NCBI GenBank assembly: GCA_964547905.1
Contig: CAZJPN010000092.1
Coordinates: 3,911-67,910, forward strand
Reading direction: 5' to 3'
DNA from: an uncultured Pseudomonadota bacterium
Lineage (GTDB): Bacteria > JAMCPX01
DNA length: 64,000 nt
Position 1 is the first letter of the stretch; every line of letters begins with the position of its first letter. The translations under genes and the position numbers were made by a program. Below are positions 11,872 through 64,000 of this stretch, in pieces. Below the pieces are notes generated by a model. That model searched no databases, was not told the DNA's origin, and saw only the letters and a program-made list of their open reading frames with translations.

Positions 11872-11884
11872 GAGGCAATATTAG

Positions 11885-12205
11885 ATGAAAGCTTATGTGG
11901 ATAACAGGGCAATGGATTATCAGACAGTACCGGCAATAAGTATATCTCCATTCAAAATACTCTTAACGCTCGCGGTGATCCTTTTCTTTATACTGATCTT
12001 GATATGGAGCCGGATCAACTTTATAGCGGCAAGTTACAGGATGTCCAACCTGACTTTACAAACACAAAAATTAAACCAGCAGATCGATCAATACGACCTT
12101 GAAATAGCCACACTGAAAAGCAGAAACAGGATTGAAAATATAGCGAGGACGAGGTTGAACATGGGCTATCCCGACAGCAGACAATTAATTTCAATAGACA
12201 GGTAG
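11885..12205 (+). CDS. ftsL: Cell division protein FtsL
   Basis: Single TM helix plus coiled coil and RIENIARTRLNM; lies between rsmH and ftsI. Confidence 0.88.
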   Translation: MKAYVDNRAMDYQTVPAISISPFKILLTLAVILFFILILIWSRINFIAASYRMSNLTLQTQKLNQQIDQYDLEIATLKSRNRIENIARTRLNMGYPDSRQLISIDR

Positions 12206-12206
12206 G

Positions 12207-18262: not shown

Positions 18263-18265
18263 TGG

Positions 18266-27167: not shown

Positions 27168-27168
27168 A

Positions 27169-38982: not shown

Positions 38983-39009
38983 GTGTTAAAAAGAAAGGAG
39001 GATACTAAA

Positions 39010-39696: not shown

Positions 39697-39816
39697 AAGG
39701 ACTTACGGAGAGCGGGGCTTTTTACAGAATAAAAAGGCGTACACAAGGCGGGTTGCATAACACCTTTAACTGGGTGCGGTATTATGATAGAACAAAGATA
39801 AGAAAGGAGCAGATAT

Positions 39817-40599
39817 ATGGCTAAGATGGGTATTCTCATTGATATAACCAAATGTATAGGCTGTGGTGCTTGTGAAAAGGCATGTAAGATGCGAAACGAT
39901 CTGCCTCTTGACCTTGAGAATAACCTCTCTGCAACTGCTTATACTGTGGTTCAGGAAAGGCTGCCGAACACCTATGTAAGAAGGATGTGCATGCACTGCG
40001 AGAATCCCACGTGTGTATCGGTCTGCCCTGTGGGTGCCTTCACAAAGACAGCGGCAGGTCCTGTAATATACGATAAGGATAAATGTATCGGCTGCAGGTA
40101 TTGTATGTATTCATGTCCCTTCAGTGTGCCGAAGTACCAATGGGACAGGGTTGTTCCCTACATACAGAAATGCTATATGTGTGCGGACAGGGTTGCAGAA
40201 GGCTCTGAACCGGCATGTACAGCGGCATGCCCGACAGGTGCAAGCATATTCGGTGACAGAGATAATCTCATCGAAGAAGCGCAGAAAAGGATCAAAGACA
40301 ATCCGCATACCTACGTGGATCACATCTATGGGTTGCAGGAAGTAGGCGGCACCTCGGTGCTGTATATTTCAAGTGTTCCGTTTGAGAAACTTGGCGAACC
40401 GTTTAATATAAACCTGCCGGATAAGCCTCTTCCGATGTATACATGGGCTGCCCTGGAAAAGGTACCTACCATCGTGGTAGTGGGCGGAGTCGTATTGACG
40501 GGAATATGGTGGATAACCAGCCGCAGGGATGAGGTTAAAAAGTTCGAAATTAAACGCAAAGAAAAAAAGAAGCTCACCGACAAAGGAGATAAACCATGA
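39817..40599 (+). CDS. HybA/FdnH-like 4x[4Fe-4S] protein with C-terminal TM helix
   Basis: CIGCGACEKAC, CMHCENPTCVSVCP, CIGCRYCMYSCP and KCYMC...PACTAACP clusters; YGLQEVGGT; C-terminal anchor. Confidence 0.9.
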   Translation: MAKMGILIDITKCIGCGACEKACKMRNDLPLDLENNLSATAYTVVQERLPNTYVRRMCMHCENPTCVSVCPVGAFTKTAAGPVIYDKDKCIGCRYCMYSCPFSVPKYQWDRVVPYIQKCYMCADRVAEGSEPACTAACPTGASIFGDRDNLIEEAQKRIKDNPHTYVDHIYGLQEVGGTSVLYISSVPFEKLGEPFNINLPDKPLPMYTWAALEKVPTIVVVGGVVLTGIWWITSRRDEVKKFEIKRKEKKKLTDKGDKP

Positions 40600-40829
40600 A
40601 CATACTCGGTACACTTTTATCAAAACTATTCAACCAAAATACAGCCGATAAACAAGCCTCTGTTGATATAAAGCAAGGACAATTACAGGTGCTGGCAAAC
40701 AGGTTGAAAAAACATAGTGTTTTAACACCAAAGCTCCTGACCGGTGGAGCCATGGTTGCCGGCTTATGGTGGATAACAAAGAGGAGAGACAAGGTCAAAG
40801 AAGCAGAACGGGATAAAAGTATCAAATAA
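40596..40829 (+). CDS. Small membrane protein paralogous to the HybA-like C-terminal tail
   Basis: AGGAG Shine-Dalgarno and ATGA overlap with the upstream gene; GGAMVAGLWWITKRRDKVKE matches GGVVLTGIWWITSRRDEVKK. Confidence 0.7.
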   Translation: MNILGTLLSKLFNQNTADKQASVDIKQGQLQVLANRLKKHSVLTPKLLTGGAMVAGLWWITKRRDKVKEAERDKSIK

Positions 40830-40846
40830 AGGACTGAGAGGTATTT

Positions 40847-41995
40847 ATGAAACTGCCGAAGATAACATTCTGGAGAATTGTAATTGCCGCAATAACAATA
40901 CTCGGTATCTACTATACCATTATACGATACACAAAAGGCCTTGGCGCTGTAACCAACCTGAGCAATAAATACCCGTGGGGGCTATGGGTAGGATTCGACG
41001 TAGTAACCGGTGTAGGCCTTGCAGCAGGTGCGTTTATCATAGCTCTGACTGTCTACATATTCCGCATCGATGACTATAAACCAATCCTGAGACCTGCTAT
41101 ACTTACCGGCTTTTTGGGGTACTCGCTTGTTGCGGTCGGTCTGCTGTATGACCTCGGCAAGTGGTTTGACGTATGGCACCCCATTATTTTCTGGAACCCC
41201 CATTCCGTGATGTTTGAAGTTGCATGGTGTGTTATGCTGTATCTCACGGTCCTTGGACTTGAGTTCAGTACCGTTGTATTTGAACGATTAAAAATGCACA
41301 GGCTTAATCATTTAATCCATATACTCATTATACCGTTGTCCATATTGGGGGTCATACTTTCAACCCTGCATCAATCATCGCTTGGCTCCTTATTCCTCAT
41401 AGTACCTACAAAATTGTACGCACTGTGGTACTCACCGTATCTTCCCTTGTTCTTCTTTATCTCTGCCGTGTCCGTAGGCCTTGCAATGGTGACCATGGAA
41501 TCCTTTCTCAGCATGAGGTTTCTTGGTAAGGGTATAGAGCTCAACCTGCTCAACGGCCTTGCAAGAGTTAACGTGCTTGTCATGGCCTTTTACCTTACCT
41601 TAAAAATACTGGACCTTGCCGGCAGAGGTGTGCTCGGTGATATTATGTCAACACGATTTGAAAGCATCATGTTTGATATAGAGACGCTCGTACAGGTTGT
41701 AATACCGTTCTTGCTGCTTTTGATCCCTGCTGTAAGGACGAGTGCAAAGGGATTGTTTGTTACTTCACTGTTTATCGTGATAGGGTTCATCATGAACAGG
41801 CTTGATGTCGCAATAACGGGGGTAGAGGCCTCATCCGGAACAACGTATTTCCCGGCCTTTGGTGAGATCATGATCTCTGTATTCCTTGTAACCATGGGAT
41901 TCCTGGCTTTTGCCTTTGCTGCAAAGTACCTCAATGTTTTTGTGCATGTTGAGAAAGAAGAGGAAGGACCGGTTGAGATTATCCATGATGTTTAA
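40847..41995 (+). CDS. NrfD/HybB/PsrC-family quinone-reactive membrane subunit
   Basis: YPWGLW..FDV..GV.LAAG, DLGK, SVMFEVAWC and STLHQSSLG motifs; about 10 TM segments. Confidence 0.9.
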   Translation: MKLPKITFWRIVIAAITILGIYYTIIRYTKGLGAVTNLSNKYPWGLWVGFDVVTGVGLAAGAFIIALTVYIFRIDDYKPILRPAILTGFLGYSLVAVGLLYDLGKWFDVWHPIIFWNPHSVMFEVAWCVMLYLTVLGLEFSTVVFERLKMHRLNHLIHILIIPLSILGVILSTLHQSSLGSLFLIVPTKLYALWYSPYLPLFFFISAVSVGLAMVTMESFLSMRFLGKGIELNLLNGLARVNVLVMAFYLTLKILDLAGRGVLGDIMSTRFESIMFDIETLVQVVIPFLLLLIPAVRTSAKGLFVTSLFIVIGFIMNRLDVAITGVEASSGTTYFPAFGEIMISVFLVTMGFLAFAFAAKYLNVFVHVEKEEEGPVEIIHDV

Positions 41996-42278
41996 TACCC
42001 GTAAGAAATTTAAAGTGAATGGAGTTTGTGGATTGATTGATAATCTGTATAGGGAAGAAAGAGTTTTCTCCTCTGTTCGTGAAACAACGCTCTTGTTGCT
42101 AAAGGAAATTGTTACCATAATATGCAGTATGTATTCTTTGATACTGAAAGAGATGTTGTCCATGCAGAGTACTCTGAAAAAATATCAGGCAGTTCATTGG
42201 TGTTTCACTTCACTTCGTATCAAACTCTTTTTTCCCTGCTGTGCTTTTGGTTTAACTTGTCCGATTGGAGGTTACTCT

Positions 42279-42731
42279 ATGAAACTGTATAATGCGAGAA
42301 GATTGCTCCTGATTGTTGCTGTGCTGTCATTGTCTCTGATATCTTATACATCCTCTGTCATGGCCGCGACTCACACGTATGTGGGCGTTGAGGCGTGCAA
42401 GATGTGCCATGAAAACCAGTACAAGATATGGGAAGCAAGCGCCCATGCCAGGGCTTATGACGCTTTACCTGCAAAGGAAAAGACCAACCCTCAATGTCTG
42501 TCCTGTCATACTACCGGCGGAACAGCCGCCTTCCCCAACGTACAGTGTGAGGCGTGCCACGGACCAGGAAGCGATTATGTAGATATGGACACAATGAAAA
42601 ACTTTAAAAAGGTCTGGGACGCCGGGTTAAACCGTCATGCGGCAGAGACCTGCGTAAACTGCCACAACAAAAACAGCCCTACATTCCGGGGCTTTGACTT
42701 CAAAACATACTGGATGGAGATCATGCACTGA
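42279..42731 (+). CDS. Periplasmic tetraheme c-type cytochrome (c554-like)
   Basis: Signal peptide from ATG 42279 (after GGAGG); four CxxCH motifs (CKMCH, CLSCH, CEACH, CVNCH). Confidence 0.88.
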   Translation: MKLYNARRLLLIVAVLSLSLISYTSSVMAATHTYVGVEACKMCHENQYKIWEASAHARAYDALPAKEKTNPQCLSCHTTGGTAAFPNVQCEACHGPGSDYVDMDTMKNFKKVWDAGLNRHAAETCVNCHNKNSPTFRGFDFKTYWMEIMH

Positions 42732-51096: not shown

Positions 51097-53358
51097 ATGA
51101 AAAAATTGGTTGAGATTGCAATAAAATATCCATGGCGTGTCATTATAGTTATTGCCATGCTTACTGCCATAGCAGGCTACTTTGCAATCGGCGTACCTGT
51201 TCAGGATGACATCATGAAAACGCTCCCTGAACATGACCCCCAGGTAACGCTGTTCAACAATATAGGAAAACGTTTTGGCGGTACGGATTATTTCCTTGTC
51301 GTTATGGAGGGAGACAACCTGTTTACCCGTTCAAGCCTTGAAAAACTGAAAACCATTACCGATAAACTCGAATCGCTTCCCGAACTCAACAGGGTCGAGA
51401 GCCTTACCAATGTCGAAGATATCAAGGCAAGCCATGGAGAGCTTGATATCTCGAAATTTATGGAACACATCCCGGACAATCCACAGGCGCTGGAAACGAT
51501 CAAACAGGATGCACTCTCGGACAAACTGTATCTCGGCAACCTCATTTCACCGAATGGGAAGGCACTTGCCGTACTTTGTCAGATCAAAAAGGACATAAAC
51601 AGTGAATCCCTTGTAAACAGGATCGACAAGATCATCCAGCCTTACAAAGGACCCGAGAATATTTACCTGATAGGTGTGCCTGTTGATAACGATATTATCA
51701 GCAAAGCAATACATTCCGATTTAGGAAAACTGCTGCCTCTTGCGATACTGATCAATATCGTCATAATGTATATACTGTTCCGCAATTTTATCAGTGTTGT
51801 CCTGAGGCTTACCCCTGCACTCATTGCCATAGTCCTGACCGTGGGTGCCATGGGTATAACGCACACCCCGTTCACCATGCTTTCCGTCGGTATGCCCACC
51901 CTCCTTATCGCACTCGGCAGCATCTACAGCATCCACATCATGACACGGTACTACCAGCTGCTCGAACATACAAAGAACAATGAAAAAGCATTAAAAGGTA
52001 TGATAAAGGAACTCGGCATACCAATGCTGTTTATAGGATTGATAACCTCGATGGGCTTTTTCGCCAATGTATCTTCCACAATCGTGCAGGTAAAACAGGC
52101 TGGTATATTTGCAGGTATAGGTATATTATTTTCCATGTTTATATCCGTGACCCTGGTACCAGCCCTGCTAACACTCAGGCATAAGGGGAAAGAGGAGCAG
52201 CGTGCAAGCAAAAAGAGCGGGTTCAACAATTTCCTCGAGAACCTCTCTGTATGGGTGCAGAGGCACAACTCCATAATCCTTGCTATAGGCATAGGACTTG
52301 CAGCTCTCGCGATCTATAGGGTAAAGACCATCAACACGGAAACAGACATTACGAAGTTTTTCAAGGCAGATTCGGTTGTACGGAAGACATCCGCAAAAGC
52401 GGTTAAAAACTTCGGCGGTATATTCGTGCTTCAGATTCTTGTACACGGTGACATAAACTCTCCTGCAGTAATGAATACCATGGCCAAACTTGAGGATGAG
52501 GTGGACACCATCAACGGGGTTCATTATCCATTCAGCATAGCCGACCTGATCGAGAAAATGAATGAGGTCATGCATGATAATAATCCCGCCTATCACACGA
52601 TACCTGCGACAAAGAACGCCATAGCCCAGTACCTGCTCCTGTATTCCATGTCGGATCAAAAAATGCTGGATACGCTCATTACGCCTGATTCGAAAGAGGC
52701 TATCATCCAGGCAAGGATCGGGAAATTTGGCTTTCATGAGATAGAGCAGATCATTAATCAGATCAAACAAAAAATACAACCTCTTGAAACAAAGGACATC
52801 CGTTTTACGCTGTCCGGTTCACCCATGCTTATCTTAACCATCAATAAACATCTTATAGAAAACCAAGAGACAAGCCTTTATATATCGATTATAGCTGTTT
52901 TCCTTTTATTATCTGTTGTATTTCGATCCCTGATAGGCGGATTGATTACACTTATTCCGCTCGTGATAAAGGTCAGCTACAACTACGGTATCATGGAGCT
53001 CTTCCATATACCACTGAACGTTGCCACAGGGCTTATTGCGAGCATGACAATAGGTGTTGGAGTTGATTATATCATACACTTCGTCATGGGATTCAGAGAG
53101 CGACTCAAAGAAGGTTCAAGTCATTCCATCGATTCTGCCATGAAAGAGGCCACGGTCATAACGGGCAGATCCATACTGAACAGCGCAATCGTGCTTGTCG
53201 GGGACTTTTCCGTGCTGACGCTTTCAAGCTTCCTTCCGATGATCTACTTTGGAATACTCTCCGCAAGCATGGTCATATACAGTTCTATCGTTTCCATAAC
53301 CCTGTTTCCCGCCCTGCTGCAGATAGTCCACAAGCACCTGAAGTGGCTGAAGAAGTAG
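51097..53358 (+). CDS. MMPL/RND-family transporter
   Basis: Two repeats of one TM helix, a periplasmic domain and five TM helices; GVGVDYIIH motif; likely start ATG 51097. Confidence 0.88.
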   Translation: MKKLVEIAIKYPWRVIIVIAMLTAIAGYFAIGVPVQDDIMKTLPEHDPQVTLFNNIGKRFGGTDYFLVVMEGDNLFTRSSLEKLKTITDKLESLPELNRVESLTNVEDIKASHGELDISKFMEHIPDNPQALETIKQDALSDKLYLGNLISPNGKALAVLCQIKKDINSESLVNRIDKIIQPYKGPENIYLIGVPVDNDIISKAIHSDLGKLLPLAILINIVIMYILFRNFISVVLRLTPALIAIVLTVGAMGITHTPFTMLSVGMPTLLIALGSIYSIHIMTRYYQLLEHTKNNEKALKGMIKELGIPMLFIGLITSMGFFANVSSTIVQVKQAGIFAGIGILFSMFISVTLVPALLTLRHKGKEEQRASKKSGFNNFLENLSVWVQRHNSIILAIGIGLAALAIYRVKTINTETDITKFFKADSVVRKTSAKAVKNFGGIFVLQILVHGDINSPAVMNTMAKLEDEVDTINGVHYPFSIADLIEKMNEVMHDNNPAYHTIPATKNAIAQYLLLYSMSDQKMLDTLITPDSKEAIIQARIGKFGFHEIEQIINQIKQKIQPLETKDIRFTLSGSPMLILTINKHLIENQETSLYISIIAVFLLLSVVFRSLIGGLITLIPLVIKVSYNYGIMELFHIPLNVATGLIASMTIGVGVDYIIHFVMGFRERLKEGSSHSIDSAMKEATVITGRSILNSAIVLVGDFSVLTLSSFLPMIYFGILSASMVIYSSIVSITLFPALLQIVHKHLKWLKK

Positions 53359-53364
53359 CCCTCG

Positions 53365-54564
53365 CTAACCAAACTCTGATACTGCATACTTTGCAAAGGC
53401 CATTGACGAGGTAAAAGCAGGGGAAACAGCATTCAGTACATGCAGCGAATCGCCATCCTTTATGAGAACAAAATCCATCTCAAGTTTTTTCGTGTGCCAG
53501 TTTATAAGCTGCGGTCTTATACCTACTTTATCGGTGTCCTCGATATCGTTGAATACAAGTGATCTGACGAGCTTTTTTGCTTCGTCAAAAACGAATCTTC
53601 TTCTATATTTCTTTATCTCTTCAATTGCAGAATATCTGAAAACAGGATCTGTTATAAGCATCAGTGCATCATGATAAAGGATAGACAATGTTTCGGTTCC
53701 CAAACCATCAAATATCCTGTAATTTTCCCTGCCAAAGGTAGGAATGGCGGTAGGGCCTATATAAATCCTATTGTCAGCAGTATGTGTAAAGTGAACACCA
53801 AGAAATGGGTTTCTTAAATCAGGTACAGGATATATGTTGCCCCTGACGAGAAAATTCCTTTCCTTGATCAACCTTTTATAAGTACCCTTAAATGGAAGGA
53901 TCTTATACTCTTTTACAATGTCAAACCAGTGGGCGATCCTATCCGCATAAGCACCTGCAGCATTAACGAATTGTTTAAAATGCACTAATCCTTTTGATGT
54001 GCGGATAACATGATCATCAACAAGACTTATAAAAGGTGTATGGTAAAACAATCCAACCTTTTTTGAATCAACAAGTTCTTTCGTAAGGGCGTTTAATATC
54101 TCTACAGGCATCATAACCGCGGTTTCAGGAGAGAATAATGCCTTTTCACATGTTACGGCATAAGGCTCTATTTCCGACAGTTCCTTCTCATCTATAATAA
54201 TTGATTTTGCACCGCTTGCGTCCGCCCTTTTTTTTAGTTCTCCAAGGCTTTTGAGCTCTTCATGATTTTTAGTAACAATAACCTTACCTGTTTCTTTCAA
54301 TGTCAGATTTTTCTCATAGCAGAACTGCTTCATAAGACGATTGCCTTCGATACAAAAGCGAGCCTTCATACTATCCGGCGTATAGTATATACCCGCATGG
54401 AGTACGCCGCTGTTGCGTCCGCTTGCATGGCAACCAACGTTATCCTCTTTCTCAATGATAACTATATCTTCCGCACCACGAGCAAGGAACTCGCGTGCAA
54501 TGGTAATACCTGTTATGCCTGCTCCAGCTATAAGAATCTGACATTCAGTATATTCCGTTTGCAT
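53365..54564 (-). CDS. lhgO: L-2-hydroxyglutarate oxidase family FAD-dependent oxidoreductase
   Basis: GAGITG, HASGRNSGVLHAGIYY, YPVPD..PFLGVH, GIRPQ and NAVSPAFTSS motifs. Confidence 0.88.
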   Translation of the reverse strand: MQTEYTECQILIAGAGITGITIAREFLARGAEDIVIIEKEDNVGCHASGRNSGVLHAGIYYTPDSMKARFCIEGNRLMKQFCYEKNLTLKETGKVIVTKNHEELKSLGELKKRADASGAKSIIIDEKELSEIEPYAVTCEKALFSPETAVMMPVEILNALTKELVDSKKVGLFYHTPFISLVDDHVIRTSKGLVHFKQFVNAAGAYADRIAHWFDIVKEYKILPFKGTYKRLIKERNFLVRGNIYPVPDLRNPFLGVHFTHTADNRIYIGPTAIPTFGRENYRIFDGLGTETLSILYHDALMLITDPVFRYSAIEEIKKYRRRFVFDEAKKLVRSLVFNDIEDTDKVGIRPQLINWHTKKLEMDFVLIKDGDSLHVLNAVSPAFTSSMAFAKYAVSEFG

Positions 54565-54589
54565 TTTTCGGGTTAATCCAGGTTGAAAA

Positions 54590-55426
54590 TCAGAACAATA
54601 TAAATGACGACAATGTCTGTCGTGAAATGGGTAGCCTTTTCATCTCATAGGGCGTTAAGAACAAGTTATTGATATACGCATTCTTATGAAACAGCACTGC
54701 ATCCTTAAACTCCCATCTTTGAACAAGAGAATCTCCGTTGTACAGTTCGGCTACCTCTGGCAGCGTCATGGCTGTCTGTGTATAGGTGTCGGCTTCGATA
54801 TGCACAGTCGCATCATTGTTATCGTCGCCATTTTTAATTTTTGCAGTATTGTTTGCGAGTTTAACGTCTGTCAAATAGTCTTTCACAACAGCCAGTACAT
54901 AATTGTTTTCGTATTTTATTCTGTACATTATTGGAACTGTATCTTCGTTATCTATAAATAATTGATCGTTATCATCGCCGATGATATATGCGGCTCTGTT
55001 GTCCGCAAGTCCATAAGCAACCTTTGTTTGATTTAGCCCGATTTCATTGAATATTCTCTGTGGATTATCCGACAAATATAACCCTACCAAAACTGTAAAG
55101 AGGTTGTTTTGCGAAAATATCTGCATGGGTGTGAGCATTCTTACATTATTTACAAGTATTGATTGGCGCAGCCCGTCGTTTATAATACTGACAACAGCCT
55201 TTGGAAATACATAATCCTGTCTGACATGACCATCTGGCTTTATTATAACCCTACAGGGTACAGGGATATTTATATAATCCTTACCAAGGTTAAAAAACGC
55301 ATTTCCGTTGAGCACGAGTACATCTAAGCTCTTCTGTGACTTCATCAGTTCTGCCATCTTATATGCAGGGATGATAAAGTCCGTAAACAACACAACCGCC
55401 AGTAAGACCAATATTATTCTTTTCAT
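54590..55426 (-). CDS. Hypothetical exported or membrane-anchored protein
   Basis: 278-aa ORF with an N-terminal hydrophobic segment; overlaps the galU stop by 4 nt. Confidence 0.7.
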   Translation of the reverse strand: MKRIILVLLAVVLFTDFIIPAYKMAELMKSQKSLDVLVLNGNAFFNLGKDYINIPVPCRVIIKPDGHVRQDYVFPKAVVSIINDGLRQSILVNNVRMLTPMQIFSQNNLFTVLVGLYLSDNPQRIFNEIGLNQTKVAYGLADNRAAYIIGDDNDQLFIDNEDTVPIMYRIKYENNYVLAVVKDYLTDVKLANNTAKIKNGDDNNDATVHIEADTYTQTAMTLPEVAELYNGDSLVQRWEFKDAVLFHKNAYINNLFLTPYEMKRLPISRQTLSSFILF

Positions 55427-56292
55427 TTGATATACCCTTTCATGTAGTCAAGCAATCTGTCTTTTATTTCTTCCCTTTTCATTGCATAAGCAATATTTGC
55501 GAGTAAAAATCCGAGCTTGTCTCCACCGTCGTACCTGTCTCCTTCAAACTGGTATCCTATCATGCCTTTTTGTTTTAACAGTTCTCTCAACCCGTCTGTA
55601 AGCTGAAGCTCCCCCCCTGTACCGGAAGGTATGCTTTCCAATATGCCGAAGATCTCGGGTGTGAGTATATATCTGCCTATGATTGCAAGATTGGATGGGG
55701 CTTTATCAGGCGCTGGTTTTTCGACAACATCGTCAAGCATATAAATTCTTTTATCCGTTTGTCTTCCCTTTATTATGCCGTATCTGGACGTGTCTTCTCT
55801 TGAAACCTCCTGCACCGCTATGATAGGTTTTTTATACTTTTCATAAACATCTACCATCTGTAAAAGGCACGGCTTTTGAGCATCTAGGATATCATCACCG
55901 AGTATGACTGCGAATGGCTCATCGCCTATAAGGTATTTAGCCTGTAAAACGGCATGACCGAGCCCAAGCGGTTTTTTTTGCCTTATAGATACAATCTTTA
56001 TCATGTCCGACAAACCTTCGATAAGGCCAAGCAGGCCCAGGCCGTTGCTGCCCTTTTTTCTCAGCGCATCTTCAAGTTCGTAGTTGATATCGAAGTGGTC
56101 TTCTATTGCCTCTTTACCATGGTTTACAATGAGGATAACAAGCTCTATGCCTGATGCCTTTGCCTCTTCCACGATATACTGAATCATGGGTTTGTCCACT
56201 ATCGGCAAAAGTTCTTTTGGTACTGCCTTTGTTACAGGCAAAAATCTTGTACCATATCCTGCTGCAGGTATCACTGCTTTTTTGATCTTCAT
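55423..56292 (-). CDS. galU: UTP--glucose-1-phosphate uridylyltransferase
   Basis: KAVIPAAGYGTRFLP.TKA.PKE, LGLGHAV, VEKP and GELQLTD motifs. Confidence 0.96.
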   Translation of the reverse strand: MKIKKAVIPAAGYGTRFLPVTKAVPKELLPIVDKPMIQYIVEEAKASGIELVILIVNHGKEAIEDHFDINYELEDALRKKGSNGLGLLGLIEGLSDMIKIVSIRQKKPLGLGHAVLQAKYLIGDEPFAVILGDDILDAQKPCLLQMVDVYEKYKKPIIAVQEVSREDTSRYGIIKGRQTDKRIYMLDDVVEKPAPDKAPSNLAIIGRYILTPEIFGILESIPSGTGGELQLTDGLRELLKQKGMIGYQFEGDRYDGGDKLGFLLANIAYAMKREEIKDRLLDYMKGYIK

Positions 56293-57077
56293 TGAATGTT
56301 TCCATCCTTTATTAAATGTTCAAGTCCATCTTCTATTAAAAGTTTATCCAACAGGTAATCTGTTTTTACATGTTTTAATGATGCAAATATCGAATCCTTT
56401 ATATGGGGATGCCCCTTTTCAAGCTCTGATATTATTTTCCTTATTTTTTGTCTGTTTGTCAACCGAGGCATCATTGAAACAGGACACTGTGGATCAATCA
56501 AAGGCGCTTCAAGACCCGAGGCATAGGCAAGTGCTGCCTGAGCTTTGACATATATCAAGGGCCTTATAACCATAACCTTATAATTATCAGAAATGCTTAT
56601 TGCAGGCATTGCTTTTATTTGCCCGTTAAAAAAGATGTTCATCAATAGTGTCTCTATAAGATCGTCCATGTTGTGTCCAAGAGCGATCTTATTGCATCCA
56701 ATTTTTGGTGTGAGGCTGTACAGCAGGCCTCTCCTCAGTCTCGAGCATAGAGAGCACAATAGCTTTTTGCCTTTGTTATGTTCGAGCGCAATCCTTAATA
56801 TATGTGTGTGTTCTATCCTGTAATCGTAGCCATGTTGTTTAAGGTATGATTCGACAAGATCGCTTTTCATTCCCGGTGCACCGGTATCTATATGGACTGC
56901 AACGATACCGTATTTGATCGGTGCTTTGTGCCGTAGAATCTCGAGTGTATCCAACAATGTATAACTGTCCTTTCCCCCTGATACTGCAACAAGAATACGG
57001 TCGCCGTTTTTTATAAGATTGAAGTCCCCTATGGCTTTTCCAGCCAGCTTTACAACATTGTTCTTATCGTCTGTCAT
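56289..57077 (-). CDS. ttcA: TtcA-family tRNA thiolase (PP-loop)
   Basis: SGGKDS, CSLCSRLRRG, LGHNMDD and IRPL motifs; likely start ATG 57077. Confidence 0.85.
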   Translation of the reverse strand: MTDDKNNVVKLAGKAIGDFNLIKNGDRILVAVSGGKDSYTLLDTLEILRHKAPIKYGIVAVHIDTGAPGMKSDLVESYLKQHGYDYRIEHTHILRIALEHNKGKKLLCSLCSRLRRGLLYSLTPKIGCNKIALGHNMDDLIETLLMNIFFNGQIKAMPAISISDNYKVMVIRPLIYVKAQAALAYASGLEAPLIDPQCPVSMMPRLTNRQKIRKIISELEKGHPHIKDSIFASLKHVKTDYLLDKLLIEDGLEHLIKDGNIQ

Positions 57078-57144
57078 AATTATGGATATACTATCATCTA
57101 ACCTTGAAAAGTAAACCCCGTTAGAAAGGGCGTGGCTATTGCTA

Positions 57145-58176
57145 CTAAGAAGCAACAGGCAGCGTTACTACAAAACTTGAACCAATGCCGAATTCGCTTA
57201 CTACCTGTAACTGACCGGAATGTGCCTGAATAATCCTCTTTGCTGTAAGCACCTCTATATAAAGTTTTTCCTCATCTTTCATGTGGGAGAAGGTGTGCTT
57301 GTCTGTTACATTTTCAAAGATTGATTCCGCTGTCCCCATACCTGTATTTGCGATTACAAGCATAATATAAGGTTTATCATCCACAATGTCGTCCTTGACT
57401 TCTATGTACAGAATATCCTTTTCGTGTTCTTCTTTTATCGCAAGGCTTAGCAGATTTATCAACCCCTTGGTGAATTTTTCCCTGTCGAGTTTTATTGTAA
57501 AGTTCTCAGCTTTATAAGCGGTGTATAGCATGATACCTTGTTTCTGTGCAAAAGGCTCAATACTTTTTACACACGATTTTATAACCCTTAAAACATCTAC
57601 GTCGTCAAACTCGAGATTGAGAACGCCGGATGTCAACTGATTTATATCAAGCAGTGTTTCGAGTGCGTTCATGAGCATCCTGGTAGAATCTTTTGCCTGC
57701 CGGACATATACGTCTTCGGCTTTGAGTATTTGTTTGTTGTTGAATAGATCGTATAATGTATAGATGGGATCCTTCAATTCGTTTATCATCATGGAGGTGA
57801 GCTCTGATCTCTGTATAAGAAGGTGTTCTTCTACTGTTGTATCAAGCATATTTAAAATAAAACCGGTGTATTTTTCTTCTACCATAATGGGAGATATTCC
57901 GAGTTTCATAAACTTGTTCTTTTCTTCTATGTGTATCCTTACAGGTGTATTCGTTTGTTTTACTTTTTCTATTGACTCGGATATCTTTTCCCAGTTTTCT
58001 TTTGAAAATATTGTGGAAATGGGCGTACCTATCAGCTTGTCTACTTCTTTAGAAAGAAACCGCAGAGCAGAGGGATTGGCATAAACTATGTTGTAAGACG
58101 AATCGGCTATCAAAATCCCGCTGTCAACGAAAGCCAGAAGCGTTTTCATTTTTTTGAATAATTCCGTACCAACCAT
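57145..58176 (-). CDS. PAS-domain histidine-kinase-like protein with degenerate catalytic boxes (pseudokinase)
   Basis: PAS (GILIAD....IVYANP) plus HisKA and HATPase folds; the H-box reads MINELKDP (His to Asn) and the N, G1 and G2 boxes are altered. Confidence 0.8.
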   Translation of the reverse strand: MVGTELFKKMKTLLAFVDSGILIADSSYNIVYANPSALRFLSKEVDKLIGTPISTIFSKENWEKISESIEKVKQTNTPVRIHIEEKNKFMKLGISPIMVEEKYTGFILNMLDTTVEEHLLIQRSELTSMMINELKDPIYTLYDLFNNKQILKAEDVYVRQAKDSTRMLMNALETLLDINQLTSGVLNLEFDDVDVLRVIKSCVKSIEPFAQKQGIMLYTAYKAENFTIKLDREKFTKGLINLLSLAIKEEHEKDILYIEVKDDIVDDKPYIMLVIANTGMGTAESIFENVTDKHTFSHMKDEEKLYIEVLTAKRIIQAHSGQLQVVSEFGIGSSFVVTLPVAS

Positions 58177-58773
58177 TTAAAATCCTATAATCCCAAGTTT
58201 TGTTAACTTATAAAACCTTCTCATAGTCTCAAAACGGTCTATGTTGTTGATCGTCTGAAATATTTCTTCGGCTGTAGAATAGCCGTCAATCATTGACACA
58301 ACATAGCCGTCTGTTTTATCGAGGTTATACTTTATAAGATCCTGTTCATTGATGTTTAACTTAGGGATTTTTTTGAAACTGTACAATTCATTATAATAAA
58401 GTTTAATCAGTTGTGCTTTTACAATGGAGAGATATGCCATGAGCTGTTTATTCGAATGATAAACCTTTTCATAAAGCCTTTCGAGGAATTCATACGCAAG
58501 TTCGTACCTGCGTGATTTTAAAAGTTCTCTTATATAGTTCATATTGACAAATTCAGCACTTTTAAAGTCGGACTTTGGAACTTCTTCTGATGGCGGTGAA
58601 ATCACCGGAGATTCCGTACTGAAGCCCGCTGATTCGATATAATCAATAGCCTGTTGATTGTTTGGATCAAGTTCCACCACCTTTCTCCATATAGTAACTG
58701 CATCCTCGGTCTTGCCATAGCCGTAAAGTGTCAAACCATCCTGTAATAATTTTTCTATCTCTTCCTGGTTCAT
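58177..58773 (-). CDS. TPR protein with C-terminal S-x-IDG (winged-helix-like) domain
   Basis: N-terminal TPR (AVTIWRKVVELDPNNQQA); C-terminal GYVVSMIDGYSTAEEI. Confidence 0.75.
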   Translation of the reverse strand: MNQEEIEKLLQDGLTLYGYGKTEDAVTIWRKVVELDPNNQQAIDYIESAGFSTESPVISPPSEEVPKSDFKSAEFVNMNYIRELLKSRRYELAYEFLERLYEKVYHSNKQLMAYLSIVKAQLIKLYYNELYSFKKIPKLNINEQDLIKYNLDKTDGYVVSMIDGYSTAEEIFQTINNIDRFETMRRFYKLTKLGIIGF

Positions 58774-60347
58774 TGGTCCTTTAGTTCTAATTCAAGAGAG
58801 ATCATGCTTTCTTTCATAGTGGTTATCTCTTCAGCACTTAATCCGCTCTTTGCTTCAAGAGTAACAGTTTGTTCTATCCCGAGGTCAGCGTCCTTCGCCG
58901 TTACCCTGAGAATACCCTCGCTGTTCATGTCGAAACCGACCTCGATATTGGGTTCGCCTTTTTTGGAAAGTCTTACTCCGCTTAGAACGAACTCTCCGAG
59001 AAGTTCGTTATCATTCGCCATCTTTTCGTTGCCTTGATAAACAGCTATTCTTACCGCATCTTGATTATCATAGGTTGTTGTGAACCGACGCGTTTTTGTT
59101 ACAGGTACCGCTGTATTTCTCGGTATGATTTCTGTAAAAACGCCGCCTTTTGTCTGTATACCGAGGGACAGGGCAGTAATGTCGACAAGTATATTTGAGG
59201 GTAGAGGTGATACGATATTATAAGCGTGTATGGCTGCCCCTTCTGCCACTACTTCATCAGGGTTTATACTCCTGTTTGGTTGTTTTTCGAAAAATTCAGC
59301 CACCTTTTTTATAATGAGTGGTGCCCTTGTCTGACCCCCTACAAGTATAACCTCAGCAATGTCACTCTTTTTAAGCCCGGCGTCATCTAATGTATTCTTA
59401 CATATCTGTATGGTCTGTTCAACCAGTTCATGCATAAATCCTTCAAGAACGCTCCTTGTTATTACTGTGTTGTAGTGAATCGACCCCTGTGAAGTCTCTG
59501 TCAGGAATGGCAAAGATATTGTTGTCTCTATTTGAGAAGAAAGTTCTATCTTTGCCCTTTCTACGGCGTCCTTTAATCTCTGCATTGCCATTACATCCTG
59601 TTTTAAATCCGTTCCATTTATTTTCTTAAAATCTTCGAGTATGTAATTAATAATTCTATTATCGATATCCTCTCCGCCGAGGTATGTATTACCTGCTGTA
59701 GACAATACTTCATATACTCCTTCCCCAAGTTCGAGTATCGAGATGTCAAAGGTGCCTCCTCCAAAATCATAGACGGCTATAAGTTCATTCTTTTTCCCCC
59801 TTTTCTGTCCATAAGCCAGAGCGGATGCAGTTGGCTCGTTTATGATCCTTAAGACTTTTAATCCGGCTATCTCAGCGGCATCTATTGTAGCCTGTCTTTG
59901 ATTTTCGTTAAAATAGGCTGGCACTGTAATACATGCACCCTCTATATCATCTTCGAGAAACCCCTGTGCTACATTTTTTGCCTCAAGCAGTATAAAGGCG
60001 CTGATCTCGGGAATACTTATAGATTTTTCCCCGCATATAACCCGTATATCCTGGTGAGGGCCTTCCACAATTTCATAGGGCACTTTCGTCTTTGTAACCT
60101 GTACTTCCTTAGAATCATATCTTCTGCCTATAAGTCTCTTTGCTGCGAAGATTGTATTTTTGGGATTTGTTATTGATTGCCGTTTAGCCCTTACACCGAC
60201 AAGGTTTTTTTCATCACTGGTGATAGCAAAGTAACTCGGTATGAGTCTGTTGCCTGTTGAAGATGGTATAACCAAAGGCTTGCCGTTTAACATGGCAGCA
60301 ACACATGTGTTTGTGGTACCGAGATCGATACCTATTGTTTTACCCAT
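58770..60347 (-). CDS. Hsp70/DnaK paralog lacking most of the alpha-helical lid
   Basis: [21 protein letters not shown] and VGGQTR motifs; 525 aa, ending just after SGLSAEEI. Confidence 0.92.
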
Positions 60348-60349
60348 AA

Positions 60350-61480
60350 TTATTTAATCAAACTCCTCAATTGTTTTATTTCTACCTTAATATCATCCGT
60401 TTTAACACCAAGGGCAATAGTTTGTTCATATTCGAATAAGGAGCTTTTAAGAAGCCCGGCTTTTTTATATATTTTAGCAAGCAAAAGATGATAATCGGGG
60501 TTTTTCGGATCTAGTTCTATGGCCTTTTGGCAGTAATTTTTAGCCTCCTTCATAGGCTGATTAAAGTCATACATTACAGAGGCAAGTTTATAGTATATGG
60601 ATTTTTTTTCGTTGGTAAGTTCTATTGCAGTTTTCAGAAAATTTAATGCATCCTCCGGCTTATTCAATTCGACGCTTATATCCGCCTTTTTTAGCAAGTC
60701 CTCATATCTATTTGCCTTCATATGCCTTTCCGCCTCTTGCACCTTGTTGATATACTCTTTATCATAAGGATTATAGGAGACTGCCAATTTTAGGTTAATA
60801 TAGGCGTTGGAATAGTCATTATCCATGAAGGCCTTTATCCCAAGCTTGTAGTATGTCGATGCTTTTTTGACTCGATCTTTTATCTGATCCGTTATGATGT
60901 GCTTTGTTGATGTTTCAACGGTAGTTTTTTCAAGCTTGAGGGTATCAGTCTTTGATTTAGCAGTTGATGCCTCTGGTTTAGTCTCTATTGTTTTTTTGGT
61001 AGCTTTGTTTTTTAATGTTTCGTAAGCCTGTTGTACTTTTTTATATATATCCTCAAGAAAATGCTTGTCTTCGGGAAGAACGGCTCTTGCGTAATAACTG
61101 TCCGGATGGAACATCTTTGTCTTTTCGAAGTATGCTTCTTTAATCTGCTCCATAGGAGCACTCTCAGAAACACCGAGCATTGAATATGGATCTGCATTCT
61201 CATAAATAGCATAGAGGTCTTTTATTGATTGCTCGGTTTGTTTCTGTTCATTGGATTTAATAGGGGGATGTAAAGAGGAATCACTCTGTTTAAATTCAAC
61301 CACATTGTGATTTCTTAGATTTTCAAGGATCTTATTTACCGAGGTTAATCCAAAACCTGTTACTTTTGCTATTTCTTTTGCCGATGTTCTTCCATCGATG
61401 AGCGATACTACAAACTTCTCTTGCTCTGTTAACCCTGAAACACTACTTACCTGTTTGATAAGTTTTGGCATAGATTCCAT
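60350..61480 (-). CDS. J-domain plus TPR co-chaperone with N-terminal S-x-IDG domain
   Basis: DPYSMLGV...IKEAY...FHPD...AYETL J-domain; C-terminal TPRs (AIELDPKNPDYH); likely start ATG 61480 after AAGGA. Confidence 0.88.
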   Translation of the reverse strand: MESMPKLIKQVSSVSGLTEQEKFVVSLIDGRTSAKEIAKVTGFGLTSVNKILENLRNHNVVEFKQSDSSLHPPIKSNEQKQTEQSIKDLYAIYENADPYSMLGVSESAPMEQIKEAYFEKTKMFHPDSYYARAVLPEDKHFLEDIYKKVQQAYETLKNKATKKTIETKPEASTAKSKTDTLKLEKTTVETSTKHIITDQIKDRVKKASTYYKLGIKAFMDNDYSNAYINLKLAVSYNPYDKEYINKVQEAERHMKANRYEDLLKKADISVELNKPEDALNFLKTAIELTNEKKSIYYKLASVMYDFNQPMKEAKNYCQKAIELDPKNPDYHLLLAKIYKKAGLLKSSLFEYEQTIALGVKTDDIKVEIKQLRSLIK

Positions 61481-61680
61481 ATTCCTTATTTGTAATAATA
61501 TTAATATTTTTGTCAAGCACTAAAACGATCAATGTCTAAAGCCTATATTTATTTGCACAGTCTGTTTTTTTTGCAAAATTATAACATAAATGTACTTACA
61601 CATTACTTACAGATAGGTATTTTTTAAGTTTGTCCTTGTGATTGACAATTAGATTCCATTTATATATAAATATATTGATT

Positions 61681-62622
61681 ATGTTCAAACATAAATTAAT
61701 TTATAAGATTTTTGCTATAATAATGACATTTGTGTTTGTTTCATCCACATGGGCAGCAGATATTGCCATTATAAAAACACGTAATCTTGTGCCATACAAC
61801 GAGGCTATCACGGGTTTTACCGTAAATTGTAGTGCTCTACGTACCAAAGAGTATGACATGGAAGAGAACCAGGCACGCGGGGAAGAGATTGCAGGGCAGA
61901 TAAATGAAAGTAAGCCATCCGTTGTACTCGCTGTAGGCGCCCCTGCTGCCCAAATAGCAAAACTGTATATAGACAAATCAATTCCTGTTGTATTTATAAT
62001 GGTTCAGAGCCCCGAGAAAATAGGTCTTCAAGATATAGCCAATTTGACAGGAATTTCACTCAATATTCCCGTAGAGACGCAGTTGCGTGCATTAAAAGCC
62101 CTGGTTCCTTCTGTAATCAGGGTTGGCGCAATATACAACCCAAGGAATACGGCTCAGGAAATCAATCAGGCAATGAGGATCTCCAATCAACTTGGATTCA
62201 GGCTTATTGCAGCAAAAGTGGATACCCCCAATGACGTTACAAGGGCACTCAGAGCATTTGCTGAAGGTATAGATGCATACTGGATGCTTCCCGATATAAC
62301 AGTCATGCAGGCATTTACAACGATCCTGAACTATACAAACGACAGAAGGATACCGTTTCTTGCTCCATCAAAGATTATGGTAGACAGGGGAGCGCTTGTT
62401 TCGCTTGCTCCTAATTATGCAAATATAGGAAGTCAGGGATGCGGTATCGTTAATCAGATAATCAGCGGGACAAAACCATCTCAAATTCCTATTTCTCCTC
62501 CCACGGGATTGGAACTCACGGTTAATCTTACAGCGGCTAAAACGCTCGGATTGCAGAGCATTGCAACAAATGCAATGACATTTGCAGCATCAGAAGGCTA
62601 CAAGATAAGCATATCACAGTAA
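61681..62622 (+). CDS. ABC-type substrate-binding protein (ABC_sub_bind family)
   Basis: Signal peptide, IPVVF, NLTGIS, GAIYNP, GALVS and VNLTAAKTLGL motifs. TTGACA at 61642 is more likely the -35 element than a TTG start. Confidence 0.85.
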   Translation: MFKHKLIYKIFAIIMTFVFVSSTWAADIAIIKTRNLVPYNEAITGFTVNCSALRTKEYDMEENQARGEEIAGQINESKPSVVLAVGAPAAQIAKLYIDKSIPVVFIMVQSPEKIGLQDIANLTGISLNIPVETQLRALKALVPSVIRVGAIYNPRNTAQEINQAMRISNQLGFRLIAAKVDTPNDVTRALRAFAEGIDAYWMLPDITVMQAFTTILNYTNDRRIPFLAPSKIMVDRGALVSLAPNYANIGSQGCGIVNQIISGTKPSQIPISPPTGLELTVNLTAAKTLGLQSIATNAMTFAASEGYKISISQ

Positions 62623-62641
62623 AACTCAAGAAGGCGGTAAA

Positions 62642-64000
62642 TTGGACAATATAATTAAATTCGGAACATCTGGGTTTAGGGGCATTATTGCAGACTCGTT
62701 TACTTTTAGGACTCTTACTGCAACAGTACATGCTGTAGCAGATTACGTAAAAGCGCATTCAATCAATGCCCAGCCAAGACTTATGGTAGGCTATGATCCC
62801 AGGTTTATGGGAGAGGTTTTTGCAAAAGATGTAGCGGAAAATCTGAATATGCGCGGCGTAGATGTTGTCTTAACAAATAGGGATACCCCAACACCTGTTA
62901 TAGCATTCTATGTTATAGCTCATAAGCTTGATGGGGCTATAAATATTACCGCAAGTCATAATCCGCCCATCTACACGGGTATAAAATTTACACCATCATG
63001 GGGGGGGCCGGCCATGCCCGAAGAGACAAAGCAAATAGAGTCTATGGCGAACCAATACCTTGCTGAGAACAGCTTATTCGGGCAAACACAAAAAAATAAG
63101 GGTAAAACAGAATTTGTAGATCCTATGTCGGAATATATCGATCATCTGAACGACATGATAGATTTTAAAGAGATTGCCAAGGCTAATTTAAAGATAGCAA
63201 TAGATCCCCTGCACGGAGCAGGCCGAGGCTATCTTAAAAGAATATGTGAAACACATGGTATAAAATATGTATCCATACATGAGGCAAGAGATCCATACTT
63301 TGGCGGTGCCGTTCCCGACCCCAATGAAACTAATCTTTTTGAATTGAAAAAGCTTATGGCGGAAGATGAGACCATTGCCCTCGGCATGGCAACCGACGGC
63401 GATGCAGACAGATTCGGTATTTTAGACAGGCACGGCAGGTTTATAATACCTGATTATGTACTCGCGATTCTATCGGAGTATGTGCTTTCAACACGTGATT
63501 TTGAGGGAGGGCTTGGCAGATCAATTGCGACAACACATCTTATTGACAGGATAGCCCGTCAGCACAAAAGAGAGGTTTATGAAACACCCGTAGGTTTTAA
63601 GTACATAGGTAAACTGCTGACAGAGGGAAAGATCGTGTTTGGAGGAGAAGAAAGCGGCGGGCTTTCTATTATAGGGCATATACCGGATAAGGACGGGATT
63701 ATTGCAGGTCTGCTCATGCTTGAGGCAGTTGCAAGAACGAATAAGACGGGCAGTTTCCTTCTGGAAGATATCTATAAAATGGTTGGAACCTTATATGCCG
63801 ACAGAAGGGATATAGAGCTTGATAATGATAGCCATGCGCATGCGAAGGCATTAATGTCAAACCCTTCGATATTGATTGATAAGTTTAAGCCCCTGGAGGT
63901 TGATAGAACAGAAGGGCTAAAATTGCTGTTGGAAGGCGGATCATGGCTTCTCTTGAGATTATCGGGAACCGAGCCTGTAATAAGGATTTATGCAGAAGGA
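62642..64000 (+). CDS. Phosphoglucomutase/phosphomannomutase (3'-truncated by the window edge; absent from the ORF track)
   Basis: Manual translation from TTG 62642: MDNIIKFGTSGFRG...ITASHNP...TDGDADRFG...GGEESGG...RLSGTEP. Confidence 0.93.
   Translation, partial: MDNIIKFGTSGFRGIIADSFTFRTLTATVHAVADYVKAHSINAQPRLMVGYDPRFMGEVFAKDVAENLNMRGVDVVLTNRDTPTPVIAFYVIAHKLDGAINITASHNPPIYTGIKFTPSWGGPAMPEETKQIESMANQYLAENSLFGQTQKNKGKTEFVDPMSEYIDHLNDMIDFKEIAKANLKIAIDPLHGAGRGYLKRICETHGIKYVSIHEARDPYFGGAVPDPNETNLFELKKLMAEDETIALGMATDGDADRFGILDRHGRFIIPDYVLAILSEYVLSTRDFEGGLGRSIATTHLIDRIARQHKREVYETPVGFKYIGKLLTEGKIVFGGEESGGLSIIGHIPDKDGIIAGLLMLEAVARTNKTGSFLLEDIYKMVGTLYADRRDIELDNDSHAHAKALMSNPSILIDKFKPLEVDRTEGLKLLLEGGSWLLLRLSGTEPVIRIYAEG

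Follow-up and report, generated by a model that had tools for sequence, protein, structure and literature searches.

A stretch of 64,000 nucleotides (nt) from contig CAZJPN010000092.1 of an uncultured bacterium, called the window throughout, carries four consecutive minus-strand genes that probably form a specialised Hsp70 chaperone system. Read in the direction of the genes, they encode a J-protein with tetratricopeptide repeats (TPRs), an Hsp70 without a lid, a small protein that we call the adaptor, and a PAS-containing histidine kinase homologue that appears to be catalytically dead, the pseudokinase. The four genes and the domains that matter for the argument lie as follows.

60350..61480, minus strand: J-protein gene, 376 amino acids (aa) from the ATG at 61480, with AAGGA ahead of the start
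61286..61471, minus strand: winged-helix-like domain at the N-terminus of the J-protein (residues ~4-65), a homologue of the adaptor C-terminal domain
60992..61192, minus strand: J-domain with HPD motif (PF00226), residues 97-163 of the 376-aa protein (109-175 of the 388-aa open reading frame)
58770..60347, minus strand: Hsp70 gene, 525 aa
58177..58773, minus strand: adaptor gene, 198 aa
58180..58374, minus strand: adaptor winged-helix domain, residues 134-198, the predicted Hsp70-binding surface
57145..58176, minus strand: pseudokinase gene, 343 aa

The first-pass annotation of this DNA had described four tightly coupled genes at 57145-61480, and the open reading frames (ORFs) are found exactly there. 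The J-protein and Hsp70 genes are separated by 2 nt, the adaptor start overlaps the Hsp70 stop in a 4-nt ATGA, and the adaptor and pseudokinase genes abut with 0 nt between them. The longest ORF of the J-protein gene begins further upstream, with a TTG at 61516, and would give a product of 388 aa. The identities that had been proposed for the four products, i.e. a J-TPR protein, a lid-less Hsp70, a TPR protein and a PAS pseudokinase, are borne out by Pfam matches and motif alignments, and none of the four genes is a grpE, an hrcA or a full dnaJ, as had also been stated.

The Hsp70 matches PF00012 over profile positions 2-514 of 599 (E 6.1e-185) and the NCBIfam DnaK model over positions 1-509 of 625. 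As the PF00012 match ends at position 514, the alpha-helical lid is missing: the nucleotide-binding domain (NBD), the linker and the beta part of the substrate-binding domain (SBD-beta) are complete, the chain stops 20-25 residues past SBD-beta, and the SBD-alpha lid is absent. DLGTTN, AKRLIGR, NEPTA and DFGGGTFD, which we take to be the motifs of ATP binding and hydrolysis, are present and invariant in 27 module Hsp70s. Scored with canonical DnaK models, the protein lies above the cut-off of NF001413 (664.7 vs 648) and below that of TIGR02350 (648.3 vs 822.55), and it falls below both HscA models (TIGR01991, 490.1 vs 708.55; NF003520, 490.6 vs 620). Its GrpE-signature loop has the same length as in the genome's own DnaKs and is not deleted as in HscA; residues 20-110 align with these DnaKs without a gap, so that the HscC-type deletion is not present either. 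The short tails of the lid-less proteins are themselves conserved, reading LELELK[DE]Q in the window group, LYEIDLKDE in a second group encoded on contig C89 of the same genome (described below) and ELYEVQLK[EDG] in Myxococcota; the window protein ends in ...LELELKDQ (58770-58800). None of the module Hsp70 tails examined has EEVD at the C-terminus. By analogy with EEVD, the conserved lid-less tail could serve as a docking peptide for TPR domains.

Its presumed partner, the J-protein, is recognised in Pfam by a DnaJ match (PF00226, E 1.5e-10) and by a C-terminal TPR array (e.g. TPR_11, E 1.6e-10), with no match to DnaJ_C or DnaJ_CXXCXGXG. The HPD motif (H125, P126 and D127) is invariant in 17/17 J-protein orthologues and paralogues. 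By these features the protein is a class C J-domain protein. Its first 70 residues align with the adaptor family in hhalign (probability 98.2, E 6.3e-14, 70 columns), and the same N-terminal domain gave a BLASTP motif match and a weak Pfam match to TrmB. Since the J-protein N-terminus is homologous to the C-terminal domain of the adaptor, the same winged-helix module appears to occur in two of the four proteins.

In Pfam the adaptor itself reaches TPR models only below their cut-offs (TPR_2, 19.3 bits vs 27), and neither Pfam nor NCBIfam yields a GrpE match. Its AlphaFold2 (AF2) model, with a predicted local distance difference test (pLDDT) value of 80.5, starts with a TPR-like hairpin, from which a disordered linker (55-74) leads to a helical, TPR-like part; at the C-terminus stands a compact domain resembling a winged helix. 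The most conserved residues of the adaptor family, L151, G156, S160, D163 and G164, lie within this C-terminal domain. Structural comparison of residues 134-198 by VIA-align matched the winged helices of GATOR1 (8fw5_B, Z 8.0, root-mean-square deviation (rmsd) 2.4, 64 aligned), the RiPP-recognition elements of TigE, MibB, MccB and TbtB (Z 6.7-7.5) and RPA32C (Z 6.7); the entries matched include 8vpo_A (Z 7.5, rmsd 2.0, 64 aligned) and 4mqv_C (Z 6.7, rmsd 1.5, 49 aligned). Values of Z 6.7-8.0 are middling, and the tool itself describes them as common. When the adaptor was compared with the PDB by Foldseek, generic TPR entries only were returned, none at E <= 0.001, and a search of the ESM Atlas found unnamed or TPR clusters only, mostly from Myxococcota, with PatA_N/TPR proteins at 0.86. 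Across the adaptor family the winged helix is acidic (median net charge -4, n=47), which makes a protein-binding role more likely than a DNA-binding one.

Structure prediction of the complex points to a protein target within the module. For the pair of Hsp70 and adaptor, one of the pairs for which the first-pass annotation had proposed such a prediction, ipSAE reached 0.74 (runs 0.75, 0.74 and 0.74), while the best of 3 controls gave 0.00; the runs share at least 97% of their contacts, and the partner pLDDT is at least 76. In the calibration of the tool, the pass mark was reached by 116/157 solved complexes and by 2/215 mismatched pairs, counts that hold only roughly for a prediction made, as here, with self-built alignments. 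On the adaptor side, the predicted interface comprises residues 143-180, containing the family-invariant L151, G156, S160 and D163; on the Hsp70 side it covers 30-61 in lobe IB and 251-293 in lobe IIB, at the mouth of the nucleotide cleft. In DnaK, the loop 28-33 and residues ~55-59 and 257-267 presumably govern GrpE binding and nucleotide release. GrpE inserts into the Hsp70 cleft and tilts subdomain IIB, as described in PMC8215388. The adaptor winged helix is thus predicted to clamp lobes IB and IIB of the Hsp70, where GrpE acts. In the light of the predicted complex, the protein that had been named a TPR adaptor is better described as a putative Hsp70 NBD-binding co-chaperone.

The fourth protein matches PAS_9 (E 8.9e-10) and, weakly, HATPase_c (31.2 bits vs a cut-off of 26.4). 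Compared with HK853 and seven true kinases of the same genome, the H-box His is changed to Asn132, the N-box Asn to Leu245 and the G1 Asp to Asn277, and the G2 box is lost, with EEKLYIEV instead. These degenerate motifs are identical in 10/10 family orthologues. A HisKA profile matched 19 kinases of the genome, and the fourth protein was not among them. Its AF2 model (pLDDT 73.1) contains a PAS domain (20-112), DHp-like helices (114-146 and 155-182) and an alpha/beta CA-like domain (191-340) in which the ATP-lid region (279-299) is disordered. The positions invariant in the alignment of its PAS domain are D25, N34, F57 and I97. WalK, YF1, VicK, ThkA and HK853 are the top Foldseek matches (E 3.6e-23 to ~1e-12); DivL (4q20) is among the structural matches and RetS (6dk7) among the sequence matches. 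The alignments and the model confirm a cytoplasmic PAS-DHp-CA histidine-kinase fold that, judged by its motifs, is without the phospho-His and the ATP-binding residues.

The source genome (2.5 Mb, ~40% G+C, 94 contigs, 100% complete by markers) has four Hsp70 genes: a 609-aa DnaK on contig C7, a 662-aa DnaK on C59, the window gene and a 527-aa lid-less paralogue on C89. The 609-aa DnaK is flanked by the only grpE of the genome and by dnaJ, a housekeeping grpE-dnaK-dnaJ arrangement. The window gene is therefore not the genome's only dnaK, as two other full-length DnaKs and one GrpE are encoded elsewhere, and one of the two conditions by which the first-pass annotation would have been refuted does not hold. 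The paralogue on C89 belongs to a cassette of its own (C89:93061-96232), made up of a 333-aa J/TPR protein, the lid-less Hsp70 and a 197-aa adaptor; a pseudokinase gene is missing. Two DUF507 genes precede this cassette; argG, mreB, mreC, a 166-aa ORF, a PBP2-type transpeptidase gene, rodA and gcvP follow it. The 166-aa ORF has no Pfam match and is labelled MreD by its position. The order J2, Hsp70_2, adaptor2, ArgG, MreB, MreC, MreD is retained in 7/7 relatives, with the DUF507 pair upstream in 6/7, and PBP2, RodA and GcvP2 after MreD in 6/7 (the contig of the seventh ends there). An Hsp70 gene lies directly upstream of the adaptor paralogue in 11/11 loci.

Conservation of the module was followed across the window's phylum, for which the collection searched holds 13 genomes. 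The adaptor is found in 12 of these, usually in two copies, and the genome that misses it is 80% complete. In 8/8 complete family loci the window-type module has all four genes, ordered and closely spaced as in the window; a ninth family contig begins inside the Hsp70 gene. Identity across the family is 66-90% for the pseudokinase, 56-79% for the adaptor and 53-71% for the J-protein. A pseudokinase profile found an orthologue in 11 of the 13 genomes. With the combined profile the other two, G001 and G010, gave generic kinase matches only, which does not demonstrate absence: G010 is 84% complete, and G001 is the sole genome of another family, its cassette contig stopping at the adaptor. The surroundings are less constant. 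Neither ttcA nor galU follows the module in any of the 9 family loci, although for four of them the downstream sequence extends beyond 5 kb, and the upstream genes for an ABC substrate-binding protein and a phosphomutase recur in three family relatives.

When 36 Hsp70s were placed in a quick maximum-likelihood tree with the two DnaKs of the genome as root, the module Hsp70s formed one clade apart from these DnaKs (SH-aLRT 99). Together with the conserved gene order, this upholds the proposal of a dedicated unit distinct from the housekeeping chaperones. The clade falls into three groups, Myxococcota lid-less (100), Myxococcota lid-bearing (100) and the window's phylum (97), whose mutual order the tree leaves unresolved. 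Within the window's phylum, the C89 group is sister to the window group (96), so the second cassette arose by duplication inside the lineage; the stem of the window group is long (0.61).

We next turn to Myxococcota, where most of the other loci were found. An adaptor profile built from both paralogues was searched against 1.84 billion representatives and gave 5268 matches at E <= 0.001 and 1231 at E <= 1e-10, counts that are too high because large TPR proteins are among them; true relatives measure ~190-220 aa, and there are also longer ones that share the N-terminal TPR and the C-terminal domain but have an expanded linker. By comparison, a word-indexed protein search with the adaptor found only 22 close orthologues, and one for the longer forms found 4 uninformative TPR proteins. 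Genome scanning with a 9-row adaptor alignment located 80 loci, nearly all in metagenome-assembled genomes of Myxococcota, and upon inspection these were split by adaptor and Hsp70 length into 68 short-adaptor and 12 long-adaptor loci. In the short-adaptor loci, the gene immediately before the adaptor encodes an Hsp70 in 61/61 testable cases, a J gene lies upstream in 55/55, and a PAS protein of ~316-330 aa is encoded directly downstream in 65/65. Their Hsp70s are mostly 523-534 aa long, with calls of up to 573 aa, one overcall of 959 aa and two ORFs cut by contig ends. The long-adaptor loci, several of them in Polyangiaceae, encode Hsp70s of 607-682 aa in which the lid is present, with a J gene in 10/10 and the PAS protein in 0/12. 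Among 301 sampled genomes of the phylum that holds these loci, at least 131 have an adaptor match at E <= 1e-15, a lower bound since only 10 candidates were scored per genome.

The Myxococcota fourth gene is homologous to that of the window over its full length (hhalign probability 98.2, E 3.7e-14, 312 columns). In a sample of 20 such genes, Pfam found PAS in 19 and HATPase_c in none; the twentieth is probably a mis-called ORF. Given this full-length homology between phyla, the dead kinase is an old shared component. The co-occurrence of the TPR gene and the dead kinase with the Hsp70/J pair, on which the first-pass annotation had staked its proposal, thus extends over 8/8 complete family loci and 65/65 testable short-adaptor Myxococcota loci, so that its second refuting condition does not hold either. 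Since both the paralogous cassette and 12/12 long-adaptor loci are without the kinase, the conserved core consists of three genes.

Another feature shared between the phyla is the company of arginine-biosynthesis genes. The order in short-adaptor Myxococcota loci is a GAF protein gene, argB, argF, the four module genes and argG (e.g. L061:61-8892), with ArgB upstream in 51/53, ArgF in 44/53 and ArgG next in 31/58. In 23/58, a BNR lipoprotein or a GGDEF cyclase replaces ArgG downstream; one subclade has a BNR/Asp-box lipoprotein and a GAF-GGDEF cyclase there. For the long-adaptor loci, an ArgB match lies ~4-5 kb downstream of the adaptor in five, and argG directly follows the adaptor in one (L121). 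In the window's phylum it is the paralogous cassette that argG directly follows, in the genome itself and in 7/7 relatives. The source genome has argB and argF on C43, apart from argG, and the window cassette is no longer beside arg genes. We infer that the ancestral setting of the module was an arginine-biosynthesis cluster. An Arg_repressor_C (PF02863) match, as expected of ArgR, was not found in the source genome.

Signals around the module give limited guidance on its transcription. Two features flank the four genes:

57115..57131, minus strand: weak terminator-like hairpin with a 5-bp stem and a T-rich tail, between the pseudokinase stop and the ttcA start
61481..61641, strand not assigned: AT-rich intergenic region between the J-protein gene and the divergent ABC substrate-binding gene, presumed to hold the promoter region of the unit

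The first-pass annotation had placed the end of the unit by a promoter-like element ahead of ttcA; this did not hold, as the consensus scan lists none in the 65 nt that precede the ATG of ttcA. The number of promoter-like sites in the region is in any case not above chance (22 observed vs 17.8 +/- 4.7 expected), and this applies equally to the single minus-strand site upstream of the J-protein gene (61648-61619), which scores 9/12. Terminator-like sites are not enriched (2 observed vs 4.3 expected), and the hairpin is no more than a hint. An Rfam scan of 52000-64000 matched no family. In a mine-drainage metatranscriptome library, two short contigs are at least 99% identical to the module region, one inside the Hsp70 gene and one spanning the J/Hsp70 junction (60242-60452). 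The junction-spanning contig contains an opposite-strand joint at 60383/60452 that may be an assembly artefact. Such a library can contain DNA and contigs are no proof of one transcript, so they are a weak hint only. Two further metatranscriptome runs gave no match, and most of the stretch is uncovered in the first library; this is uninformative on expression.

Elsewhere in the window, 10990-28320 (plus strand) holds a complete, ordinary-looking dcw cluster (mraW, ftsI, murE, murF, mraY, murD, ftsW, murG, murC, murB, ddl, ftsQ, ftsA and ftsZ). At 38239-42731 lie the genes for two tandem glycine-cleavage-H-like proteins with N-terminal extensions and, after them, those for a 4Fe-4S protein, a membrane protein of NrfD type and a multihaem cytochrome c; the group resembles a membrane redox complex. 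The product of 54590-55426 (minus strand), a gene between galU and that of a DAO-type oxidoreductase, is 278 aa long, has a hydrophobic segment at its N-terminus and gave no Pfam or NCBIfam match.

Taken together, gene order and sequence identify this as a real, conserved and dedicated Hsp70 system, composed of a three-gene core and an old pseudokinase accessory. That the four genes make up a self-contained, specialised Hsp70 machine is the reading we favour, with a probability of roughly 60%. In such a machine, the J-domain would trigger ATP hydrolysis by the Hsp70, and the adaptor would be the system's own nucleotide-cycle factor, acting at its predicted site either as an exchange factor that replaces GrpE or as a Hip-like brake. 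The winged helix of the J-protein may dock on the same NBD site, alternating or competing with the adaptor. The TPR parts of both proteins would hold a client or the conserved Hsp70 tail. A dimer of the PAS pseudokinase could be an accessory, non-catalytic sensor or scaffold through which a ligand acts on the chaperone cycle, or else a dedicated client that this cycle remodels. Pressed further, the ~65-residue winged helix would be a previously unrecognised binder of the Hsp70 nucleotide cleft, an exchange factor or brake unrelated to GrpE. Together, this domain, the Hsp70 without a lid and the PAS pseudokinase would make up a chaperone switch gated by a ligand, one that originated in an arginine-biosynthesis cluster and controls an arginine- or nitrogen-linked step. 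This fuller version we put forward tentatively, and consider it rather more likely to be wrong in some part than right.

Several points weigh against the machine as just drawn. The complex is a prediction, which cannot tell an opened from a locked cleft and so an exchange factor from a brake. Most of the Hsp70 residues at the interface are also conserved in housekeeping DnaKs; this leaves the specificity for the module Hsp70 unexplained and makes cross-talk with the housekeeping DnaK possible. The contact between the J-protein winged helix and the NBD, the targets of the TPRs and the client are inference only. The pseudokinase is missing from the paralogous cassette, both in the genome itself and in seven relatives, and from 12/12 long-adaptor Myxococcota loci: the core works without it, and any binding of it to the J-protein, the Hsp70 or the adaptor is presumed. 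The linkage to arginine genes has no functional explanation and could be inherited synteny. Transcript support is minimal, comprising two short contigs from one library.

One competing explanation, the chaperone switch of the first-pass annotation, makes the pseudokinase the purpose of the whole module: the Hsp70, guided by its J-protein and adaptor, would remodel or hold the PAS dimer, and the dimer would, like DivL or RetS, titrate a response regulator or a true kinase. Only the Hsp70 is better conserved than the pseudokinase (66-90% identity vs 56-79% for the adaptor), whose start abuts the adaptor stop and which matches DivL (4q20, by Foldseek) and RetS (6dk7, by sequence). In Myxococcota the kinase also stands beside the short-adaptor, lid-less form in 65/65 loci and beside the lid-bearing form in 0/12, a correlation that nevertheless rests on two or three independent lineages only. 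The lid-less paralogous cassette, however, works without a kinase gene in the genome itself and in seven relatives, the genome has no second copy of the pseudokinase anywhere else, and the unit includes neither a response regulator nor a partner kinase. We regard this explanation as a serious contender that is nonetheless unlikely. The arginine genes, together with the winged-helix fold of adaptor residues 134-198, invite another, namely a chaperone-controlled transcription factor. The winged helices of adaptor and J-protein would bind DNA under the control of the Hsp70 cycle, as DnaK controls sigma-32, and the targets would be arg genes in a lineage without ArgR. Weak Pfam matches to TrmB and to Crp-type helix-turn-helix domains are compatible with DNA binding. 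So are the position of the Myxococcota module between argB-argF and argG, the argG gene directly after the paralogous cassette, and the lack of an Arg_repressor_C match in a genome that is 100% complete. Yet the adaptor winged helix is acidic, the face on which it is most conserved is the one predicted to touch the Hsp70, winged helices that bind peptides or proteins are among its structural matches (RiPP recognition elements, RPA32C and GATOR1, at middling Z of 6.7-8.0), and the window cassette no longer adjoins arg genes. A role in transcription is thus improbable.

The least ambitious explanation would be an ordinary back-up chaperone, i.e. a redundant DnaK paralogue engaged in general folding, with neighbours that are only loosely related to it. 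It would accommodate the score just above the NF001413 cut-off, the DnaK-like NBD and SBD-beta free of HscA- or HscC-type deletions, and the mild sporulation and oxidative-stress defects that are shared by M. xanthus deletions of non-canonical Hsp70s (PMC8265645). It fits poorly with the loss of the lid and the conservation of the tail across two phyla, with the strict linkage of the co-chaperone genes, with the separate clade of the module Hsp70s, with the TIGR02350 score below cut-off, and with a housekeeping grpE-dnaK-dnaJ operon elsewhere in the genome. We therefore give it very little credence, and the dedicated Hsp70 machine remains the preferred interpretation. The module is a tractable natural case for studying what the lid contributes, how nucleotide exchange can be controlled without GrpE, and how a dead sensor kinase is wired to a chaperone; since it lies so persistently among arginine genes, arginine metabolism suggests itself as a concrete phenotype.

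Full-text literature searches, which covered the literature on bacterial J-protein phylogeny incompletely, returned no description of the gene set, in agreement with the first-pass annotation, and none of a winged-helix Hsp70 co-chaperone. 'DnaJ-TPR' is listed as an architecture in PMC10410713, in an entry that carries no module context. By description, MXAN_3015/3016 of M. xanthus is a similar Hsp70/J pair, and MXAN_3015-3017 may be an orthologous locus. The non-canonical Hsp70 paralogues of M. xanthus are described as neither heat-induced nor essential, with mild sporulation and oxidative-stress defects shared by several of the deletions; MXAN_3016, in which the C-terminal tail is reported absent, is one whose deletion makes the cells sporulate less and resist oxidative stress less well (PMC8265645). 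Co-precipitation of the J-protein MXAN_3015 with the essential M. xanthus DnaK is described in PMC11019930; if the locus is orthologous, this would bear on the possible cross-talk with the housekeeping DnaK. The StkA locus of M. xanthus was also considered as the same system and rejected, as the locus described in PMC4319316 has the SCP2-like StkB and StkC downstream and no TPR/winged-helix protein.

Like GrpE, the adaptor winged helix is predicted on lobes IB (30-61) and IIB (251-293) at the mouth of the cleft. BAG-domain proteins and Hip also bind NBD lobes IB/IIB of Hsp70. The folds, in contrast, are unrelated, the adaptor presenting a winged helix and not the beta-domain of GrpE, the three-helix bundle of BAG or the TPR of Hip. 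TPR co-chaperones of the Hop/CHIP type clamp EEVD, which the module Hsp70 does not have. Ssz1/Zuotin and HSPA14/MPP11 provide a precedent for a C-terminally shortened Hsp70 as the fixed partner of one specialised J-protein. The Ssz1/Zuotin complex is eukaryotic and ribosome-bound. Unlike Ssz1, which does not work as a cycling ATPase, the module Hsp70 has intact ATPase motifs; the two share no sequence relationship beyond the Hsp70 family. As in DivL and RetS, the PAS/DHp/CA architecture of the pseudokinase appears to be under selection without kinase chemistry. It differs from them in being apparently cytoplasmic, only 343 aa long and devoid of receiver domains, in the change of His to Asn and the loss of the N, G1 and G2 boxes, and in its place within a chaperone operon.

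Three types of prokaryotic Hsp70 are described in PMC8215388: DnaK, HscA and HscC. The module resembles the HscA/HscB and HscC/DjlB-DjlC pairs presented there in that a non-housekeeping Hsp70 stands beside its own class C J-protein, with no grpE in the unit and, presumably, a narrow task. According to the same source (PMC8215388), HscA has the GrpE-signature loop deleted, and HscC lacks NBD residues 76-101 and has the tail-anchored partners DjlB and DjlC. The module Hsp70 differs from both in being DnaK-like in branching, without their NBD deletions and below the HscA cut-offs, and it is without the lid that both keep. Where the partners of HscA and HscC have the HscB C-domain or a membrane anchor, the J-protein of the module carries a winged helix and TPRs. 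The module further adds to such a pair a third, obligatory partner and a pseudokinase, and would thus represent a fourth dedicated prokaryotic Hsp70 system beside DnaK, HscA and HscC, one with a natural lid-less Hsp70 and a co-chaperone domain predicted on the GrpE site.

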